From the NCBI GenBank assembly GCA_003427395.1, contig BFEA01000031.1, positions 4,128,969 through 4,186,986 on the forward strand: a stretch of DNA of 58,018 nt, read 5' to 3'. Below are positions 1 to 55,549 of this stretch, one piece after another. The notes beneath the pieces were generated by a model. That model was not told the DNA's origin. It did no database searches and saw nothing but the letters and a program-made list of their open reading frames with translations. The stretch comes from Chara braunii. Its lineage: Eukaryota > Plantae > Charophyceae. Numbering within the stretch: the stretch's first letter is position 1; each line of letters starts with the position of its first letter. The translations under genes and the position numbers were made by a program.

Positions 1-15
1 GGAGTTTGGTTTGTC

Positions 16-47
<32 letters not shown>

Positions 48-2319
48 GATTAAAAAAAAAAAGAAAAAAAAAAGTGATGTTTTTTTTGCCGATTTGAACT
101 TGGACGACGAGGATGTTGCCATTAAGTGTTTTTTTTGCCGTTTTGAACTTTGAAGACGAGGACATTGCCATTTAGTGTTTTTTTTTCCGTTTTGAACTAA
201 AAGTGTGACCCAGGAGCAGTTTCCCCTTTTATTTTTCCTTCTATTCATCTATTTCTTTTTTTTTTTCATTCATCTGTTTCTTTTTTCTCTTCTTCTTTTT
301 TGCTCTTCACAATCTACGTCCGGGCTGTGTCCTACCGGTAGCTCCAGCCTCGGCATGGCTCGGCATACCGGTAGGCCAGGGCCCGGACTCGATAGCTGAG
401 CCAGATACTGGTGGTTTAAGGACCGGACTAACATAGAGGCTTCCTTCCCGCTACGCCCTCCCTCGGATTTTCCAGATCCCTTCCCTCCTCACGCCCTGTC
501 TCTAACAGAGATTCTGACTCTCCTTTACATCCTCCTCTGCATCCTCAAAGACTCATAAGCGGAATGCCTCCTGGGAGCCCCCTTGAGGAGGACCCCGCCT
601 ATGCTTTCTCCCGTTTCTACAATCTGTTGGGGTAGTTAAAGCTGTCATTTTGAGTATTCTGAAGTAACTGAGCATGGTTTGGAGTGAGTAGTTCCTCTGG
701 ATAGTATCAGTCCCTCGCTGTCTATCTGACTCCCTTCTCATAAGGGTGAAGAGATACGAAGGACATTGGCTGCTCTGCATGCTCATACAAGACTACACAA
801 GACTACACCGGTGGAGGTTACACAGGGCCTGCTCAGTCAATCCCCTGGTTTTCAGGGTAATCGATGCTGGCAGACTCCACAGTCACTGTTTTCATTCTTC
901 TATATGTGGAACACNNNNNNNNNNNNNNNNNNNNNNNNNNNNNNNNNNNNNNNNNNNNNNNNNNNNNNNNNNNNNNNNNNNNNNNNNNNNNNNNNNNNNN
1001 NNNNNNNNNNNNNNNNNNNNNNNNNNNNNNNNNNNNNNNNNNNNNNNNNNNNNNNNNNNNNNNNNNNNNNNNNNNNNNNNNNNNNNNNNNNNNNNNNNNN
1101 NNNNNNNNNNNNNNNNNNNNNNNNNNNNNNNNNNNNNNNNNNNNNNNNNNNNNNNNNNNNNNNNNNNNNNNNNNNNNNNNNNNNNNNNNNNNNNNNNNNC
1201 ACTGTTTTCATTCTTCTATATGTGGAACACTGGACCTGGACTACACCACTCAGTCTGGACAAAACACAGGGCCTGCTCAGTCAATCCCCTGGTTAGCAGG
1301 GCAATCAACGCTGGCAGACCCACCGTCACTGTTCTCATTTTCTCAAGATACCCCCTTTTTCTGTATATGGGACGCTGGACCCGTTTTCCAGGAGGTGACG
1401 CTCCCCACCAATAGATGGCGCCTCTTCCCAGGTGTTAGTGGTGTCTGCTCTTACCAGCAGCACTAACACTGGTGCGGGTGTGTTTTTTTTTTTTTTTTTT
1501 TAAAAAAAAAAGAAAAAAGGAAGTACAGGCCTGCCGCAAAACGGCTGGTGGCGGCGCCAGGTACATTCGTGCCGCTTCGTTTTTTTGCATCGTGCAGGGC
1601 ATATTCAGGGCCGCGGCCGATATATGGGAAAGGTACTGGTGGTTTGACGATTTAACATTTAAAATTTTATATCCATCGTTTCCGTCAACCATTAAAGTTG
1701 TTGTCCACAATGAACCCATATATATGAACTAGATCACATGTCATCAACGGCTACAATTGTTGGCACAACTTGGCAGCTTTTGCCGTAACTACAGATCGTC
1801 CAAGTCCTTGCATTTTTTGGGCAATCATGGTGATAAATGGGTGGGAATTGAACACTCATGTTGTCATGGACCCCGAGCTTCAAAGCTTCAATGCTTTGAT
1901 GAATAATCAATGCAACTTGCCCCACAATGGCAGATGGGTGACACCTTCGACACCTGGGAAACGTGGTCCCGACACATACAGATTCTGATGCGTTTGCTGC
2001 AATTTCTCTGACGGAAGACCAACTGCAACAGAGCAACTGCAACCAGCAATAGCTCAGAGAAATTGCTGATGCAAAAGGCAAGAAAAAGATCAGTGACGTT
2101 CCACAAGCCAAAAGGAACTCAGACTACCGTCCTCCCCCAAATAAAGAGATGGCTGCAATATATGTACAGTCTGTACTTAGCCCCTTTCCCGGCCAGATAC
2201 GGCGAATACATTGTGTAATGACCTCGCCCAGCTATTGAAGCCGAGCCTTGGAGCCCAGCCTGAAAGTGCCCTGACGCCAGAAAAGAAGGAGTTGGTAGGG
2301 TAGGTATATAAATCGCTCC

Positions 2320-30098: not shown

Positions 30099-33000
30099 TC
30101 ACTGACCGAGAACAGCGATAAGTCCTCGAAAAAAGCCCATGATACCTCCTCCCGGGTTGCTTGCTTCCGACGGACGATGCATCGTCACTGCTGGCCTTGA
30201 ACAATAAGCACTGCCATCTGCCCCGTGGGGACATCCGCAGACAGCAGTTTCCCGCCCATCGTAAAAGTTTAACCTATTGTCACGATTGCCATAGCCATGC
30301 TGATTTCCATCGTTGCCCTGACCAGGGGTGTGGCAACCCCCTAACTGATGGTCATCATGATGGTGGATGGGTTGGTGGTGATGACCACAGCAGATGCGCG
30401 TATGGGTGTTCCTGCCCATCGTATAGAAGTTCGACGAGACCATCTGCGGCACGAAACAATGATCTGAACACTGCAGCTGCTGACCGCGATGAAGGCCACT
30501 GCTGGAGTGATACTGCTGCTGCTGCTCAAGCTGCGGGCAATAACTGCTGTTGGTGGGGCGGTGACCTGCCTTTCTACTGCAGCTCGGCCGCTGTTTTGGA
30601 GACCTGACAACCGTTTCCGAGTAGGCAAAGTGCGAGGCTTGAAGTGCTTTGTCGTATTCTTTCATAGATTGGTAGATCATTCGGCCATTGATCTGCAAAG
30701 AGCACAGCTGATTAACCATGCCATTCACGTCTTCGGGTGACACGGAAGACACAAATGACCGGGAGGCAGGGCCCAAGGAACTCACCGTCGTGTCGATCAC
30801 TTCCTCCGCCTCCAAGAGAATCTTGATCTCGCTCTCATATGTCTCCCTCAATCGGACCAGTCCGTTCAGTATCTGTGCATTGTTCATACCTTCCGATCTG
30901 AGATTCTTCTCCTCCTCGATCAGGTGGTCCAGGTACTCGAGCATGGAATCGTTGAATGTAGCTATGGCGTTGCCCTTCAGAAAGCGCGCAAAGCGAGCGC
31001 TCATCTTCGCTATCGTCTGCTGCTCTCTCTTGAGATCCGATGCCCGCGTTTCCAGATCCTTTATGTTCTCCCGCAGCGCTTCGAGCGCCTGCTCTTTGGT
31101 CTTGATTAACAGGTCTATGTTTCTGTCCCTTATGTCCACTGGTACCAGCCTGGTCTCTGTCATCACATGCATATGAGCTGACCAACGGCAGCCGCAATGA
31201 TTGCATTGCAGTCTGCTCGGCGACATGGCCGTGCAGTTCTGCAGGTCTCGGTTGTTCACAATATTCACTTCCACGTTCCTCAGGTGGCACGGTTTGTGGC
31301 ACCTCGTACGGTAGTTGTACTTGGACACGTTTCCCGTGGTCACGACATCACGACACCTGGCAGAAGTGCACACTGTGTGCGGCTGATCGAGCACCACGTA
31401 CTCCAGATCGATGGCCGGCACGAACAGCTGGCTCTTGAGGTCGGCAATGTGTTTGGCTGAGAAGTCGACATCATCCATCTTGTCCGCGAGCAACTGCAGA
31501 TTGTGTTGGATGTTCCTGCTGATGTCCCCCAGAGGCTTTGCCAACCGCAGGATGAGTCTCCGCGCCTCGTTCACTGACACAGTGTCCTGCACCGGGTGGG
31601 CTGTACGGCTGAACACAAATGCCATCAGCCGTTGGCATTCCCTCACCGACACCCTCCAGCTCTCAGCGAAGTCCTCCTTCTGTTTCTCACCGAACTCCAC
31701 CCCCTGCTTCATGGCCGCCAGGAAGCGGAACGCCTCGTTGTCCATGCAGTAGATGGTGTTCTTGCTGATCTCGATGTCCACGTTGGGAGGGGCGTCACGG
31801 ATCTTGCGCAGCATCTCCCGCAGTGGCGGCATGGTGTCACCAGGACGGTAGAAGGTGGAGCGAGCGTTGGTGAAGACGAAGGCGATGTTGTTCTTGGCAC
31901 TCTTGTGCAGGTGGGAGAGGAGTTCCATGATGCAGAAGCGGAACAGAACGTTCAGCCTCGCGTTGTTCGGCTTGAGGAGAATGCAAATGCCGTGGATTTG
32001 CTTGTGGTGTCCCAGGAACCGAAGGATGTTGTCAAAGTTCTTCTTGTCCTGCTCGATGCCCCGAGTGTCCCCAATTCCAGGGGTGTCAATCAAGCGCACC
32101 AGTCGATCGCCATAGTGAAAAACGTATGCTTTGCACGATTGCGTGGAAGACTTCCCACCCCCACTCGTCTCGTTAACGTCGCCTTCATCTCCGATGCTCA
32201 CCATGCACTCCTCGAAGTCGTCGTCCTTGCATACTGTAAATGTAGAAGGTATCAGCGCAATGAGATCCTCGCGGGCATCATCCATCTTCTCGTACCTCAA
32301 GTAGTTGACAAAGGCGTTGATGAACGTGGACTTGCCCACGCCGGTCTCGCCCAAGAGCAAGACGTTCGTCTCGTCGCTGCGTTTCAGTTTGTCCAGCTCG
32401 TTCTGCAGCTCGGCGGACGTCCGAAAGCGGACGTACGTGCTGTCCAGGTGCATTCGGTCCCGACAAAGATATCGCAAAGACTGGATGGGACAGCGGCCAC
32501 ACTCACAATAGGCGAAGTCGTCATAGCCGTACTCCACTTCCGCGAGGCATCTCCCGCAGCGCCAGTTGCGCACTATGGGAGAGCAGAGGGAATGGGGACA
32601 GCGAATTTGCAAACGCGCAGATCTGTTAGGCGCATCGACACTCCTGGTGGTCGCTATCCCTGCCTGCAGGAGCTCCATCCTATTCGACTTTACGAGGCAA
32701 AGCATAGAGGTTCTTTCGTTATGAGCCCATACATCCTCATGCAACAACTGACCCTTCTCATACAAGCGGATGGCTGTTTCCAGAGAACCACGAAGACGAG
32801 GAGCTGGATGAGGAGGAGGAGAAGGAGGAGAAGGAGGAGAAGGAGGAGAACGAGGAGGAGGAGGAGGAGGAGGGGCATCGTGAGCAGTTTTACCTCGTGC
32901 AGCAGCCTTGATGTTCAAGCAATCTCTAGATTCTCTACTCCTCCGTGGCATTTCTGACGAGTGATGCCGTGAAGCAGCCTCTCTGACCTCGAGGACATAA

Positions 33001-35119
33001 AAGAAACGTCCTGTACATGCCTCACCCTGATCTCCTCGTTCCGCCATCTCTTCACCTCCTCCTCCTCCTCCTCCTCCTTCTCCCCTAGCTTCTCCTCCTG
33101 CTGCTGATCCATCCACACTGTTCGTGTTGCTGCCTTCCGCTNNNNNNNNNNNNNNNNNNNNNNNNNNNNNNNNNNNNNNNNNNNNNCTCCCCTAGCTTCT
33201 CCTCCTGCTGCTGATCCATCCACACTGTTCGTGTTGCTGCCTTCCGCTCTTTTCTCTTCTACTTCTTCTTCTTCGCTACGACTCTGAACAATGAGCCTCT
33301 TCAGCAGATCCAGGTTTCTAGTCCATACTGCTCCCCTTTCTGCAGTGGAAGTCCTGAGGAGTATATACACAGAATCTTGTTCGTGCTGTGACAAGATCTT
33401 GGTGGTTGCATCGAGCTCACTTTCCCCGCTCACAAAACGAATCCCATTATCTCGCAGGTCGTTCAGAAAGCCAACTCTTTCGTTCAACGTAAGCGACAGC
33501 CTGTTCAGCAATTCACGAAGCGTGGGCGGGCAGAAACGCTCTCGAAACTGATCCACCAGAGCCGTCAGATCACTTGGATCCGCACGTCCACATCGAATCG
33601 CAATGGCAAGGGAACCAAAATCTTGCGTCGCTTTTCGTCGAAAGGCCTCCATTTCTCTCTTCCCATCACAGATCATACTGCTGTCCGTCGCAGAGACAAC
33701 CCCCTCTCCCTCCGATCTTATGGCACAATCCACCCTCTCAGTGAACAGATGCACTTCCGCCTGGATTTCATGAATTTCTTGAAACAGCTGCTCCACCCTG
33801 CAAATGGAATCCCTGTCAGGCATAGCTGAAGGTTCCGCAGACGAGCGGCAAGAAGGGAGTCCCATCATCATCGAGGATGTGGGACTGTGCGCCTCCCGTT
33901 CATCCGCTTGTCTATCCCTTGGCATATCATCTCGCCTAACACTAATAAGATCTGCTGCTGCTGCTGCAGCAGAGGTCACCTGCTGTGCAGATGCCGCAAC
34001 GGGGGGTGATGATTGACGCATCGTGCCTTGCTGCAGAACAGGGGACATGAAGAACACAACGGGCACAGCGTCGCCTGTCTCATTTTGCGCCACTGTGCGA
34101 CAGGCATGTCGGACGAGCTTCTTCAAACCCTGGAAACTTTGCGGCATCTCCAAGCCGTTGATTGCAAGATCGGTGAAGATTCTGACCGCAAACATCTCAT
34201 CCTCCCACATGTCGCCTTCTTCCTCGAGCACCACCTCACAGTCTGCGTCATAGCTCTTGCCTGTGCCGCGATTGCCCATCTGATTCAAAGCCAGTTCTGT
34301 GCCAAGCGGGTCCGGCGCGGGCTCTCCCTCAGGCGACTGCGCCGCAGGATCACCCCTGCTGCAGAAAGTAACTCGACAGTACGACTCCATTTCCTGCAGT
34401 ACTGCGTCTAGTAGTTGCCCCAACCCTTCTTTGGAGTCCTCTTTCAGCGCAGAACCACTCCGTGCTGTCCTCTTTCTGCTTGTTACGTCCGCAATGACGG
34501 TGGCCCCGCAGGCTATTCCGCTTATGAAGTGGGTGGGACCCTCCGCTGCCACTTCGGTGACTTCGCGCACTACTGGTGTCCCAGGGACCAAGTGGTTCTC
34601 TTCGACAATAACTTGGAACAGGAGAGTCGCCCTCACACCTTCAAGTTGGCTATGGAGCATGTCGCTACTCAGAAGAAATTTTACAAGAGGCAGCTCATCC
34701 TCCCGTAGCAGTCCACCCAGAACGCTCAACTTGAGTTGTGGATTCACAACACCTAGTCTTGCGAACCTGGACGAAAATGTATCCTCGTCGTCGAAGTGGT
34801 GGTCCACATGCAATGACGGAGGGACTCTGCGTAGCTGCGTGATGCCGGCAGAATGAGACAGTGGGTCCACATTGCTACCTTCACAAAACCTCTCTGTTCG
34901 CACGTCGTACAGATCGCCTAGACTCGCAGAGCGACCAAGGGCACTCATCTGCACGACTCCGTTCCAGTCGCAGCTTCTTTCATCTTCAACAGGAGGATCC
35001 ACTCTGCGATCCGTCATCCTCGTCTCCGATTCTGCATCCAGTTCCCTCATCTCGACTTGATCAGCAGAGGAGCAGGAACTTCTATCACTTTGAGAACTAT
35101 GCGCAACCCCACCACCCAT
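30099..35119 (-). CDS. Large intronless protein (~1,637 aa if the gap is collapsed): SNTX-like MACPF/CDC-type N-terminus + Cys-rich module + septin/AIG1-like P-loop GTPase + Cys/His module + coiled coil
   Basis: ORF 35119..33187 ends SVDGSAAGGEARG at the N gap, and ORF 33116..30099 begins with the same peptide because the gap flanks are duplicated. GTPase motifs are GETGVGKS (32351-32328), T in KSSTQSC, DTPG and VFTNARS. N-terminal ALGRSASLGDLYD and THFISGIACGA resemble stonustoxin-family motifs. There is no stop in either half. Confidence 0.85.
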
Positions 35120-51700: not shown

Positions 51701-54360
51701 CTCGAGCTGGATATGGTGCTGGATACCACGCATGGGAGGAATGCTGCTGTAGGAGACGGATGGTGGGAAAACATCGTGATACTCACGAAGGAGGGCATTA
51801 ACTCTAGGCAGCAAGGAAGAAAGAAGGATGTCAAATTCCTTGGCAGCGGCAGCGTCTGAAGCAGAGGTGGAGGGGGTCTGTATGGGTGTAGGGACTGAGG
51901 GTGTATCAGTGGTAAGGGAAGCCAGAAAGTGCAGTGGGCTAGGAGGGGTAGAGGAGGTTAAGAAAGTTGAGGAATCAAGAGGGTCGGGGGCTCGGGTGGT
52001 GGTGGGTCGAGCTCGAACAACTCAACGTCCATGGAGTTGCAGGTGAGGAGATCCGTGATGTCAACAACATAAAGTTCTACATCAGGCTCACGAAGGAGGT
52101 GGTGGAACTGGGTAGGTGTACAGATGGTGACATTTACAGGGGGGGGAAGTGTAGGGTTCGATTTGCCCAACAACGGAATACGGTATTGTTTCTCATCCTT
52201 GGCGTCGAGGATAAGATCGTTGTGGGTCCAATCGGGGCCGACATGAGCGAACTGATGGGAATAGGCAGTGCCAAGAACAAGATCATATATGATTTTCATG
52301 ATATCGAGGGTCCACTTGTCATGGAACCGAGGGGCCTTGCGAAGGCTTTGGGGCATCCGCAGGGGGAAGGAGAATGGAAAATCAGGCACCACCGAATCGA
52401 CGAAGGATTTGGCCTGATTGTCGCCAAGCGTGACAGTGACAGTGGAAGGGTAGGGGGAAGTATAGAGGGATGCCTCCTTAACTACGCGAAGATGAATGAA
52501 GTCGCCAGTAGAGACAGAGTCGCATAGCGCGCGGTATACTCTAGTAGAGGACCCGAGGCGCATTGGAATAATCGGTAAGGTGCGATCGGGATTGTGTAGG
52601 CGCTGAGACATCGCAGCCAGATTGCGCTCTTTAAGGCGGATACGTTCCTGACGGACCTTAACACACTCAAGGTCCAGGAAGTCGATGATATCCTCGACTG
52701 CAATAAGGGAAGCACTGCAGCGCGCCGTGTGAAAAACACGCCTAGTAGGAGGACGAGGAGGAGGGGGATCATGAGAGACGCAAGGCGAAGAAGTGGAGGC
52801 ACTGGAGGGTGGGCCAACGACGCTAGAACCGACCAACGATGAAGTCAGATCCGAATCCTCAGAAAGAGCAAGCGGCGCGAAGGTAGAATCGTGGGCGGGT
52901 ATGCCTGCTAATGTGGGAGGATCAGGGGAGCGGGAGATCGCCGCTAGGTGGCTGCGGAGCTGGAGGTCGAGGCGACAGGGTCAGGCTGAGGGCGGGACTG
53001 CTGAACAAAGTGATGTTGGAGAGCGTCGGCGTAGGGGTAGGTGGACGGAGTGTGACCAGGTAGGCGACAACGGGTACATATATCTCATGCACGGAAGTCT
53101 TTACTCTCCCACATAGTCAATCGGGCGCGGGGGAAGACGTAGCCCCATGGGAGGGGCAGTTGTGTGGCGGAAGAACGGGTCCTCTCTGAGGAGGACTGGC
53201 GTTGTCTCAGGATAGCAGAGAAGGCGCAGACGAGGTGCTCGTCCTAGTCGGGGTCGTCGCCATCCACAAGGGACTGGGGGTCATGTTCCTGGTCCGGGTC
53301 GCTATAGGATCCGTCCGAACCAGTACCCTCCTCAGCGCTCGACGACTCGCGGATCATAGTGTGGACACGGCGGAAGAAGGCACGTCCTGGAACTCGGCGG
53401 GGACCGCGACGAGACGTGGAGAAGAGGCGGGGGCGAGATGTGTTAGGGGGGGTGCGGCACCAGGCCCAAATGTGGAGCCCACAAGAGGTGCATAGGTGAG
53501 CTGGATGGCCCTGGCAATGTTGAAGGCCCTGCGAAGGGTATGGACCGTGTATGCCAGCATCTAAAGCTGGAAGGGTTGGGGTAACCCGGCACGGAAACGC
53601 TGGACCAAAGCGTCATCGGCTATGAGGGAGGGGGAGATCTGGGCGCGAACGCGGTGGAATGCGGTGATGTACGACTCTAAGGCATTGTTGCCACCAAGCC
53701 ATCTAATCTCAGCGATCCGTGTGATCGGGTCACGGATAGGCGTTGGGCGAGAGAAGTACTGTTGGAGAAAATCACGAAACTCCGCGTACGTCATACTCGC
53801 GTGAACGCCCTGCTGAGCACGAAGGGCGAGAAAGTCGCGCCAAGTGGAAGTCGCTCGACCGATGAAGCAGGCAGACATCTCCGTAGGCCACAAGTCCATG
53901 TTTACCCCATAGTACCGAAGTTGCTCCTCGGCTGTGGTGATCCAGCCCTGGAATTCAGAGGCCTTGCCATCGAACAGGGGGACTCTGTCGGGGTGGTACC
54001 GAGGTACATAAGGCGGGGGCTGGTAATGAGGAGGGAGGGGGAAGGCACACTGCGACAAGAGGACATAAGAACTAGGGGTACCCGCAGGGGCACTAGGCAA
54101 AGCAGGAAGCTGGGGCAAAGGGCCGTGAGACAATGTGGTGGTCGGTGGAGGAAGGGTAAAGTGCATCGCAGCGGTCTGTGTCTGATGCTGTCGGTAAATG
54201 AAAGGGGCAGCAAGCTGTGCCACGAGGTGGGGAGGCAAGCGTTGACCTCCTTGGAGTTGGCGGATGTGATCATGGGCCAGAGTGAGCTGTCGTTGGAGCT
54301 CGCCATTCAGTGTCCTGGGTGTAGGAGGGGTGGGGGGGGGGGCGAAGGATCGGGGGGTGA
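48770..54360 (-). mobile_element. Decayed Ty3/Gypsy chromovirus gag-pol
   Basis: Gag (PLFDGKASEFQGW), degenerate knuckle CTRCRLPGHTPSTY (~53079-53037), protease ALCDSVST, RT PFGLRNAPATFQ/YIDDILIYS, RNase H TDASG..VLTDN, integrase HDHRAAGHLG..GQTEVTN, chromodomain EYLV*WKGYPDEESTWEP. Many stops and frameshifts; LTRs not identified. Confidence 0.95.
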
Positions 54361-55549
54361 AGAGGGAGGTGTCGTGGAAACTAACGTGGAGGAGGTTAAC
54401 AGAAAAAATGCAGTTTCGGAACATGCAGAATTTTTGTATGATTTGTACTACATTCAACTGTTGAAAATCAGGTTCCCTACATAATTTATGAGGGTATCAT
54501 GTTGAACACATGGGATCCCAATGAAATCTTCCTTTTAAATACACTGGTCATACGGGACAATATCATTTCACTGATGGACCAGCAGTTAGTGATCAGTTGA
54601 AGTTATATTGGAAATTTGTATAAAAACAGCCTCTCCTGTTTAAAAATTGTTGAAAGTCTGTTTACAAACAGTTTACCAACACCGTTCAAAAGTTAAGAAA
54701 AAAAAAATATTCGTCCGCTACAAATAGTCATCACTCTTTATTACAACAAAACTCGCACAATATTGTACTGAGAAGACTCTGTTTTGGTTGCTGCTCGCTT
54801 CCGAAAATTTAGCGGTGAAAAAAATGAATTACATTGTATTTTGTAGTCTACGTATGTTATGGCATGTGTGGGTTTCCCCATGGCTCAGGAACAGGGATGA
54901 TACAGGGGTGATGTCGTCGCCAAGTGTGTGCCAACATACTTTAAACAAAGAGATTGTCAAAGCAACACATGACTCTCACTGATTCTGATAATAATGTTCC
55001 GCAACTACATAACTTTAACTATTTTTGTCTTCAATGCTACGTTGGTCTGCAGGTGCGTATTCATTTTCAATATGACTGCAATATTTTGTATGATATTACA
55101 ACGCACCTGCCGACTACGACGTGTCAAAGGAGTATACATTGCGAACGGATATGCAGTGTCCGTAGAATATAAAATGATTACTAAGAATCCTTCGTACACT
55201 GTTTCACACTCCTTTAGTCATAAAATTGTATTATAATCAATAAATTAAGGTGCGATTGTTGTCCGGTGCATTTAATGAAAGGTTTTTGTCTTTTGCAATT
55301 TATTGTAATTCACAGACACCCTTTACAACAAAGAACAAGGAAGCGGTTGTGAGAGGGTCACATGCAGTGTCACATGTGTACTTGTACGTGTTCAACGTGC
55401 AGTGCCATATGTTGAAAAAAACTGCAGACATCATATTCTCTCAATTTGTGTCATCTTTTTAAAATTTATGTGTATCAAATGTTTTTCAGTATGTGTGTAT
55501 ATGAGTGTGTGTGTGTATGTGTGTGTATTTTTATTGGAAAGGGGCAAAC

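Follow-up and report, generated by a model that had tools for sequence, protein, structure and literature searches.

Does a charophyte alga encode, in a single gene, both a pore-forming toxin and the GTPase that might gate it? The question is raised by the minus strand of a 58,018-nt stretch of the Chara braunii genome (contig BFEA01000031.1, positions 4,128,969 to 4,186,986; hereafter the window), where two long open reading frames (ORFs) run from 35119 to an assembly gap and from the gap to 30099. An original prediction, made from the letters alone, had read the two frames as one intronless gene fusing a stonustoxin-type MACPF/CDC domain to a septin/AIG1-like GTPase, and had proposed a GTP-gated membrane-attack or cell-death effector. 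We report that the window very likely holds one intronless gene of about 1,671 codons, broken only by the assembly gap, and that its two halves are predicted to adopt the folds foreseen for them. The gene is not a lone fusion but a member of a family of at least 1,253 proteins in fungi, animals and Chara, and the hairpins on which membrane attack would depend are mismatched in the window copy.

Very likely one gene across an assembly gap

The gap consists of 45 N (33142-33186) and is flanked by an exact 62-bp duplicate (33080-33141 = 33187-33248); there are no stop codons in the 644 codons above it or in the 1,013 codons below it. Collapsing the duplicate in silico, as had been advocated, gives a single frame of 1,637 aa. 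We reject this solution on the strength of contigs from four of the eight sequencing runs that we compared with the window (24 are listed), all of which hold 40 bases between the two 62-bp copies; two of the four (X1 and X3) possibly supplied the reads of the assembly itself, and the other two (X5 and X12) belong to two other studies. Since the 40-base filler resembles the 37 bases preceding the lower copy, the duplicate belongs to a genuine tandem repeat of 102-nt units rather than to an assembly overlap, and it should not be collapsed. When the 45 N are exchanged for the 40 bases the sequence reads in frame through 5,016 nt, corresponding to 1,671 aa and a stop, and the filler itself, read by eye, contains no stop. 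The contigs of X6, X9, X20 and X21, which have little or no depth at this site, show no copy-40-copy joint. None of the contigs has unique DNA on both sides of the gap, and positions 33045-33141 were masked in the comparison, so that a collapsed allele could not have appeared. The depths (35 over the repeat against about 13 in X3, and 12.4 for the linker contig against 6 in X1) make a third 102-nt unit possible, which would add 34 codons, keep the frame and bring the protein to 1,705 aa.

The relatives of the protein point the same way. Seventy-nine of 171 fetched proteins are matched by both halves, and all 79 have them in the same order. A match to the DUF7656 domain breaks off just above the gap, at position 62 of the 101 in the profile, and below the gap the alignment to the Chara paralogue P0013 carries on, while the lower piece of the domain alone has no Pfam match. 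Trees of the front and back halves of the Chara proteins recover the same groupings, so the halves have been inherited together. The motifs listed in the original prediction are all present, in order and where it had placed them; its figure of 1,005 codons for the lower frame is right when counted from the duplicate, whereas the ATG-started lower ORF has 982 aa. Its expectation that an annotator would split the gene finds no confirmation, as neither ORF occurs in the protein collection and the best match in any length class is 77% identical; the gene looks unannotated or absent from that collection rather than split.

A second gap in the window (915-1199, within 884-1230) has a 31-bp flank overlap, and the other six window gaps have none.

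A predicted stonustoxin-type front half

Searched as a single sequence against solved structures, the protein reaches stonustoxin alpha with no better than E 0.35 and the septins with E 0.03-0.09, and the assignment of both halves therefore needed profiles and models. The front half matches Pfam PF24674 (MACPF_SNTX) with E 3.3e-6 and 26.9 bits, just below the cut-off of 27, and PF24676 (DUF7656) with 15.4-19.8 bits against a cut-off of 27. A family profile of 94 rows, which includes the full lengths of relatives, matches stonustoxin alpha with E 7e-62 (residues 5-505) and stonustoxin beta with E 8e-61 (residues 5-451), a span that corresponds to the MACPF, FAT and thioredoxin-like domains of the toxin (domain limits from the available part of PMC8704401). 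The structural model of the front half (predicted local distance difference test, pLDDT, 79; predicted template modelling score, pTM, 0.78) displays a bent four-stranded sheet with two helix clusters, and its nearest structure is stonustoxin: Foldseek returns 4wvm_B at E 2.9e-11, and VIA aligns 363 residues of stonustoxin beta with Z 19.1 and a root-mean-square deviation (rmsd) of 4.5, the next row scoring 11.9 and the cholesterol-dependent cytolysins Z 10-12. MACPF_SNTX clusters were also returned from a protein atlas, where their recognition value is low. We conclude that the front half is predicted to have a stonustoxin-type MACPF/CDC fold, in agreement with the original prediction, which had seen the MACPF part and overlooked the FAT and thioredoxin-like domains that follow it; the model aligns to residues 4-470 of stonustoxin beta and, owing to the gap, includes no more than half of the thioredoxin-like domain. 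One loop of this domain contains a run rich in proline, encoded by a triplet repeat (32798-32873) that adjoins a second triplet run at 33055-33099.

Pore-forming MACPF proteins are described as bearing the signature Y/F-G-T/S-H-x7-G-G (PMC5483515, in part). The window copy, 83 of the 93 rows and, in the profile alignment, stonustoxin alpha too have a TH-x7-G[AS] strand instead, which makes the strict signature inapplicable to the stonustoxin branch. There is no hydrophobic N-terminal stretch in the window protein, and in 58 of the 64 long relatives the MACPF domain starts within 20 residues of the N-terminus; on both grounds the protein is predicted to be cytosolic.

Finger, GTPase and DUF8206 in the back half

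In the model of the back half (pLDDT 86) a Cys/His finger is followed by a G domain, then by a long beta-hairpin rich in Cys and His, and finally by long helices. The G domain matches MMR_HSR1 with 31.3 bits (cut-off 21.9), and the best structural matches are Toc34/33 and GIMAPs (Foldseek E 3e-7), with scores close to those of other GTPases. Toc33 aligns over 210 residues with Z 15.2 and rmsd 3.7, ahead of GIMAP4 (Z 13.6) and septin (Z 11.4), and weaker matches extend to mitofusin and bacterial dynamin-like proteins. The G1, G2 and G3 residues are retained in the window copy and in nearly all of 105 rows (G1 Lys in 105/105, G3 Asp in 104/105), and Arg268 in 99 of 104. These matches and motifs place the domain, as predicted, in the Toc34/GIMAP/septin-like (paraseptin) group of the TRAFAC GTPases and bear out the septin/AIG1-like label of the original prediction, even though the dedicated Pfam profiles stay below their gathering scores: AIG1 (PF04548) reaches 20.5 of 27 bits, and Septin (PF00735) 16.6 of 26.2 bits over 28 residues only. 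The Cys/His ligands of the beta-hairpin are conserved in 100-104 of 102-105 rows, with one Cys in 91 of 104. This region is assigned to DUF8206 (PF26633) via the paralogues, as the local Pfam copy gives no match even on proteins precomputed to carry the domain. No SPRY domain appears among the 25 matches shown of the 34 Pfam matches to the window protein. A predicted complex of the GTPase-region homodimer with GTP and Mg, for which the alignment was not used, scored 0.30 with the mark at 0.32.

A large family in fungi, animals and one alga

With the back half as query, 1,253 of 7,989 scored candidates match at E <=1e-30 (540-1,719 aa); another 12 relatives are longer, and 509 are shorter at E 1e-20. 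The family profile detects a MACPF domain in 69 of 120 listed relatives, always before the P-loop; of the 69 listed relatives with at least 1,100 aa, 64 have it. Named carriers of the GTPase region comprise Chara braunii with 11 paralogues; Glomeromycota, Endogone and ascomycetes among the fungi; rotifers, tardigrades, nematodes, insects, mites, a millipede, a sea urchin and a coral among the animals; and, besides these, Giardia and Dictyostelium. The 252 rows listed, which are top rows only and many of them unnamed, name no green plant other than Chara. Stand-alone and tandem forms of the GTPase also exist. Five animal relatives (P0001, P0003, P0006, P0016 and P0033) have two tandem P-loop GTPase units and no MACPF domain by the family profile, and P0007 has the order GTPase-MACPF-GTPase. 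Three fungal relatives (P0011, P0063 and P0111) have a HET domain or a kinase in front, either as real fusions or as merged gene models.

The window gene is nested in the Chara group with 100/99 support, adjoining CBR_g31754, and over the back half it is 77% identical to that paralogue and 45-48% to the best Glomeromycota matches; its GTPase is 88% identical to that of the nearest paralogue. Because of this nesting the host is likely to be Chara, as the original prediction of a green-plant host implied, and contamination is unlikely. A tree that joins animals and fungi is rejected by the approximately unbiased (AU) test (p 6e-5; tested after the tree was seen, and with two labelled rows lacking a P-loop match dropped). 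The gene tree thus conflicts with the species tree, a conflict consistent with transfer or old paralogy; we claim no donor, since the trees have no root and weak deep support and may conceal paralogy.

Among 185,579 prokaryotic genomes we found ten loci, of which one, cyanobacterial and of the stand-alone form, is a near-full relative and the others are short P-loop matches. This relative (L001:4752-6857), on a contig of a metagenome-assembled genome of Nostocales, is a 701-aa GTPase-DUF8206 protein with 45% identity and no MACPF domain; the neighbouring ORFs look bacterial by eye, and a eukaryote-to-bacterium transfer is possible. None of 145 candidate viral contigs was confirmed, and a viral structure library returned generic G-domain matches only, at 10-15% identity.

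The domains are catalogued in Pfam, and relatives are recorded as 'G domain-containing' or 'DUF8206' proteins. A literature search, in which the Pfam and PANTHER identifiers returned 0 papers, found no paper on the fusion family. Stonustoxin-like genes have been reported from non-venomous fish and worms, with no GTPase fusion described in the available parts of those papers (PMC12107551, PMC10566576, PMC8704401, PMC4986456). As far as these searches reach, the large family that combines these domains is undescribed and has no functional study behind it, and it is of more interest than the window copy.

Mismatched hairpins and a fast front half

In pore-forming MACPF proteins the two transmembrane hairpins (TMH1 and TMH2) are of equal length, and the 30-residue mismatch of astrotactin is described as preventing a barrel (PMC5483515, in part). 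In the non-Chara relatives TMH1 has 46 aa in 65 of 81 and TMH2 has 42-48 aa (about 44) in 67 of 80, with hydrophobic positions alternating, and these fungal and animal proteins look pore-competent from their sequences. The window copy has hairpins of 53 and 95 aa. Prolines and charged residues stand in its TMH1 at the site of a small-residue motif present in 61 of 86 rows, and the longest alternating run of this hairpin is 5, compared with a non-Chara median of 8 (68 of 79 score higher) and a shuffled median of 4. The Chara paralogues share this condition: 10 of 11 rows score 4-6 for TMH1, the exception being poly-glycine, and TMH2 measures 56-248 aa in the nine rows that span it (P0013 and P0005 do not).

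The front half also changes fast. Its distance to the nearest paralogue is 1.11, as opposed to 0.22 for the back half, a ratio of 5.0; in 45 non-Chara pairs, which are not independent, the same ratio has a median of 1.7 and a maximum of 2.9. Among the differences between strains, which are few, all 5 in the front half are non-synonymous, as are 3 of 7 in the back half. The hairpins of the window copy thus depart from the equal length, and TMH1 from the alternating polarity, of pore-forming MACPF proteins, although this sequence comparison is suggestive rather than closed. Membrane attack by this copy, as proposed in the original prediction, is accordingly unsupported.

A proposed GTP-switched defence protein and its alternatives

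The reading that we favour, with belief and doubt in about equal measure, is that of a one-gene, predicted cytosolic, GTP-switched and membrane-docking defence protein whose MACPF hairpins probably form no normal beta-barrel pore. The finger, GTPase and DUF8206 occupy the position of the PRYSPRY domain of stonustoxin, which is described as making the first contact with the cell surface (PMC8704401, in part), and may by virtue of this position be the aiming and switching part of the protein. Toc34, GIMAPs and septins dimerise head to head (PMC5084822, in part) and carry arginine fingers (PMC10996617, in part); by analogy, GTP binding would pair the G domains head to head and gather copies on a membrane. 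The matched hairpins of the fungal and animal relatives would next enter the membrane and form a pore, while in the Chara copies the MACPF core would stay behind as an oligomerising scaffold, sensor or decoy. We infer the defence role from the expansion of paralogues, the patchy distribution and the kinship to immune proteins.

Several observations weigh against this reading. The canonical G4 motif has an Asp; the G4 region of the window copy is FTNAR, without one, so that its GTP specificity is putative, while Arg268 would be an arginine finger on the strength of a match by position only. Two raw poly(A) runs are nearly without reads of the gene (6 in 8.9 million and 2 in 16.7 million records), and base 31312 is missing in one X5 contig (depth 16.9). 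On the hairpins, the TMH2 alternation score is uninformative (5 against the relatives' median of 5), the hydrophobic moment of TMH2 at 170 degrees is not lower than in four printed non-Chara rows, and since low-complexity insertions occur in other loops of the Chara proteins too, that in TMH2 might loop out of a barrel. The hairpin limits come from one MAFFT alignment and the model, and the non-Chara set is rich in Glomeromycota near-copies, so that its counts are not independent.

As to the transcripts, two contig sets guessed to be RNA cover 29 of 30 bins (X5) and 25 of 30 (X6), deeper at the 3' end, a coverage that falls short of proof of transcription; small sets of unknown or guessed-RNA kind cover 18 of 30 (X9) and 13 of 30 (X12), and the search of sequencing runs lists no RNA dataset that contains the gene. 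Expression is likely to be low or conditional. An X6 contig that shares the other differences of the X5 contig keeps base 31312 and ends 8 bases further on; the deletion is either a null allele or an assembly error.

Four other explanations have to be weighed. A working one-component pore-former, in which the MACPF domain inserts once GTP has driven assembly on a target membrane and the surplus part of TMH2 is either looped out or removed by cleavage, is in our view unlikely, if well worth keeping in mind: the MACPF core is modelled with high confidence and retains its TH-x7-GA strand, the TMH2 helix is followed by a short remnant of alternation, TMH2 itself scores at the family median, the fast change could reflect diversifying selection instead of decay, and a defence role has been discussed for stonustoxin-like genes of fish (PMC12107551, in part), but the unequal hairpins, the prolines and charges of a TMH1 whose alternation is near the shuffled level, and the longer and very variable TMH2 of every Chara copy measured all speak against a barrel. 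The low poly(A) counts, the one-base deletion in one contig of another sample, the fast front half with repeat growth inside a domain, and the 11 paralogues that could cover its function would suit a decaying or near-silent paralogue of little current function, left by a birth-and-death expansion. We think this less probable still, as an open frame of about 5 kb in which every repeat unit keeps the frame, a well-conserved GTPase with its catalytic and Cys/His residues kept, and the partial coverage by X9 and X12 speak against decay.

A role outside defence, in membrane remodelling or development, would liken the protein to astrotactin-type MACPFs, whose mismatched hairpins mark the developmental members (PMC5483515, in part), or to dynamin-like GTPases with helical stalks, given the combination of a G domain with long helices and the weaker mitofusin and bacterial dynamin-like matches; the lineage expansion, rapid divergence and conflict of the trees may fit conflict genes better than housekeeping ones, and we rate this role as quite improbable. 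Hardly any credence is left for two separate genes, a frameshifted pseudogene or fungal or animal contamination, to which the want of a contig anchored on both sides and the fungal and animal identity of the nearest non-Chara relatives might be thought to point, in the face of the frame-keeping filler in four runs, the domain that straddles the gap, the 79 collinear relatives, the well-supported nesting among Chara paralogues and the recovery of the gene from several studies whose runs carry a single organism label.

Comparison with known systems

The closest system of known structure is stonustoxin alpha/beta (PDB 4WVM) with the fish SNTX-like cytolysins, which have the same order of MACPF/CDC, FAT and thioredoxin-like domains (limits from PMC8704401, in part). 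They end in a PRYSPRY domain where the window protein has a Cys/His finger, GTPase, DUF8206 and stalk, and stonustoxin is composed of two subunits of about 700 aa, whereas the window protein is a single algal gene product of about 1,670 aa with mismatched hairpins and no venom role. In the databases, proteins that combine PF24674, PF24676, a G domain and PF26633 in Rhizophagus, Rotaria, Plectus and Chara (CBR_g31754, CBR_g55050) have the same architecture, order and conserved residues; the non-Chara members have about 1,200 aa and matched hairpins of about 46 and 44 aa, in contrast to the longer Chara members with their insertions and eroded hairpins. Toc34/Toc33, GIMAP/AIG1 and septin share the G-domain fold, G1-G3 and a conserved Arg after the strand following G3, but are only 14-17% identical to the window G domain, which is embedded in a multidomain MACPF protein. 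Others are comparable by description: astrotactin and BRINP belong to a different MACPF branch, with unequal hairpins (in astrotactin) and no GTPase, and Arabidopsis CAD1/NSL1, green-plant MACPFs tied to immunity, are of a different branch and likewise without a GTPase (PMC5483515, in part). The neoverrucotoxin-like N-terminus of the fungus Drechmeria is joined to MORN repeats instead of a GTPase, and its function is also speculative (PMC4859500, in part).

Features of the gene and its surroundings

Coordinates of the gene and its predicted domains in the window
Feature	Position	Strand	Basis
Single coding sequence, about 1,671 aa (1,705 if there is a third repeat unit)	30099..35119	-	frames, contigs, collinear relatives
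Predicted stonustoxin-type MACPF/CDC domain, about residues 56-363	34031..34954	-	PF24674, model, Foldseek, VIA
TMH1 hairpin region, 53 aa, 2 prolines, alternation eroded	34634..34792	-	alignment
TMH2 hairpin region, 95 aa, including about 50 aa of insertion modelled at low confidence	34193..34477	-	alignment, model
Helical bundle, predicted equivalent of the stonustoxin FAT domain	33449..33814	-	model, family profile, VIA range 5..568 to 4..470
Predicted thioredoxin-like/DUF7656 domain, split by repeat and gap; lower boundary approximate	32736..33454	-	PF24676 profile 3-62 of 101; P0013 alignment
Tandem repeat, 102-nt unit, contains the 45-N gap	33043..33248	.	duplicate and contigs
Cys/His-rich putative zinc-binding finger	32448..32600	-	conservation of seven Cys and one His (78-80 of 79-84 rows); metal binding inferred
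Predicted TRAFAC GTPase, Toc34/GIMAP/septin-like; P-loop 32325-32351	31590..32378	-	MMR_HSR1, motifs, Toc33 match
Cys/His-rich long beta-hairpin region (DUF8206 in relatives)	31131..31421	-	model; ligand conservation; PF26633 precomputed on paralogues
Predicted long helices (coiled-coil stalk)	30639..31097	-	model
His/Gln/Gly-rich low-complexity C-terminal tail	30099..30560	-	translation

Elsewhere in the window, on the minus strand at 48834-54424, lie the remains of a Ty3/gypsy-type retroelement, with gag, reverse transcriptase and SH3_Tf2 matches in separate ORFs.

Implications

The locus itself gains a correct gene model and a warning against the collapse of its repeat, and the Chara copies have probably left pore formation behind. 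For the family we offer a broader view, which we put forward tentatively and regard as somewhat doubtful: it may represent an undescribed cell-autonomous killing device, spread from arbuscular fungi to rotifers, nematodes and a charophyte, that joins a perforin-fold pore-former to a GIMAP/Toc-like GTPase in one chain, with the GTPase as its aim and trigger. The stonefish venom toxin would descend from such a protein, with PRYSPRY in place of the GTPase. In Chara the gene would have arrived by lateral transfer and multiplied to a dozen copies, whose pore domain would have become a sensor or decoy that evolves fast. Two well-studied immune toolkits, perforin-fold pores and membrane-coating GTPases, are linked here in one family with more than 1,000 sequenced members. 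The relatives with matched hairpins make a GTP-gated pore directly testable, and they bear on the origin of the fish venom cytolysins.

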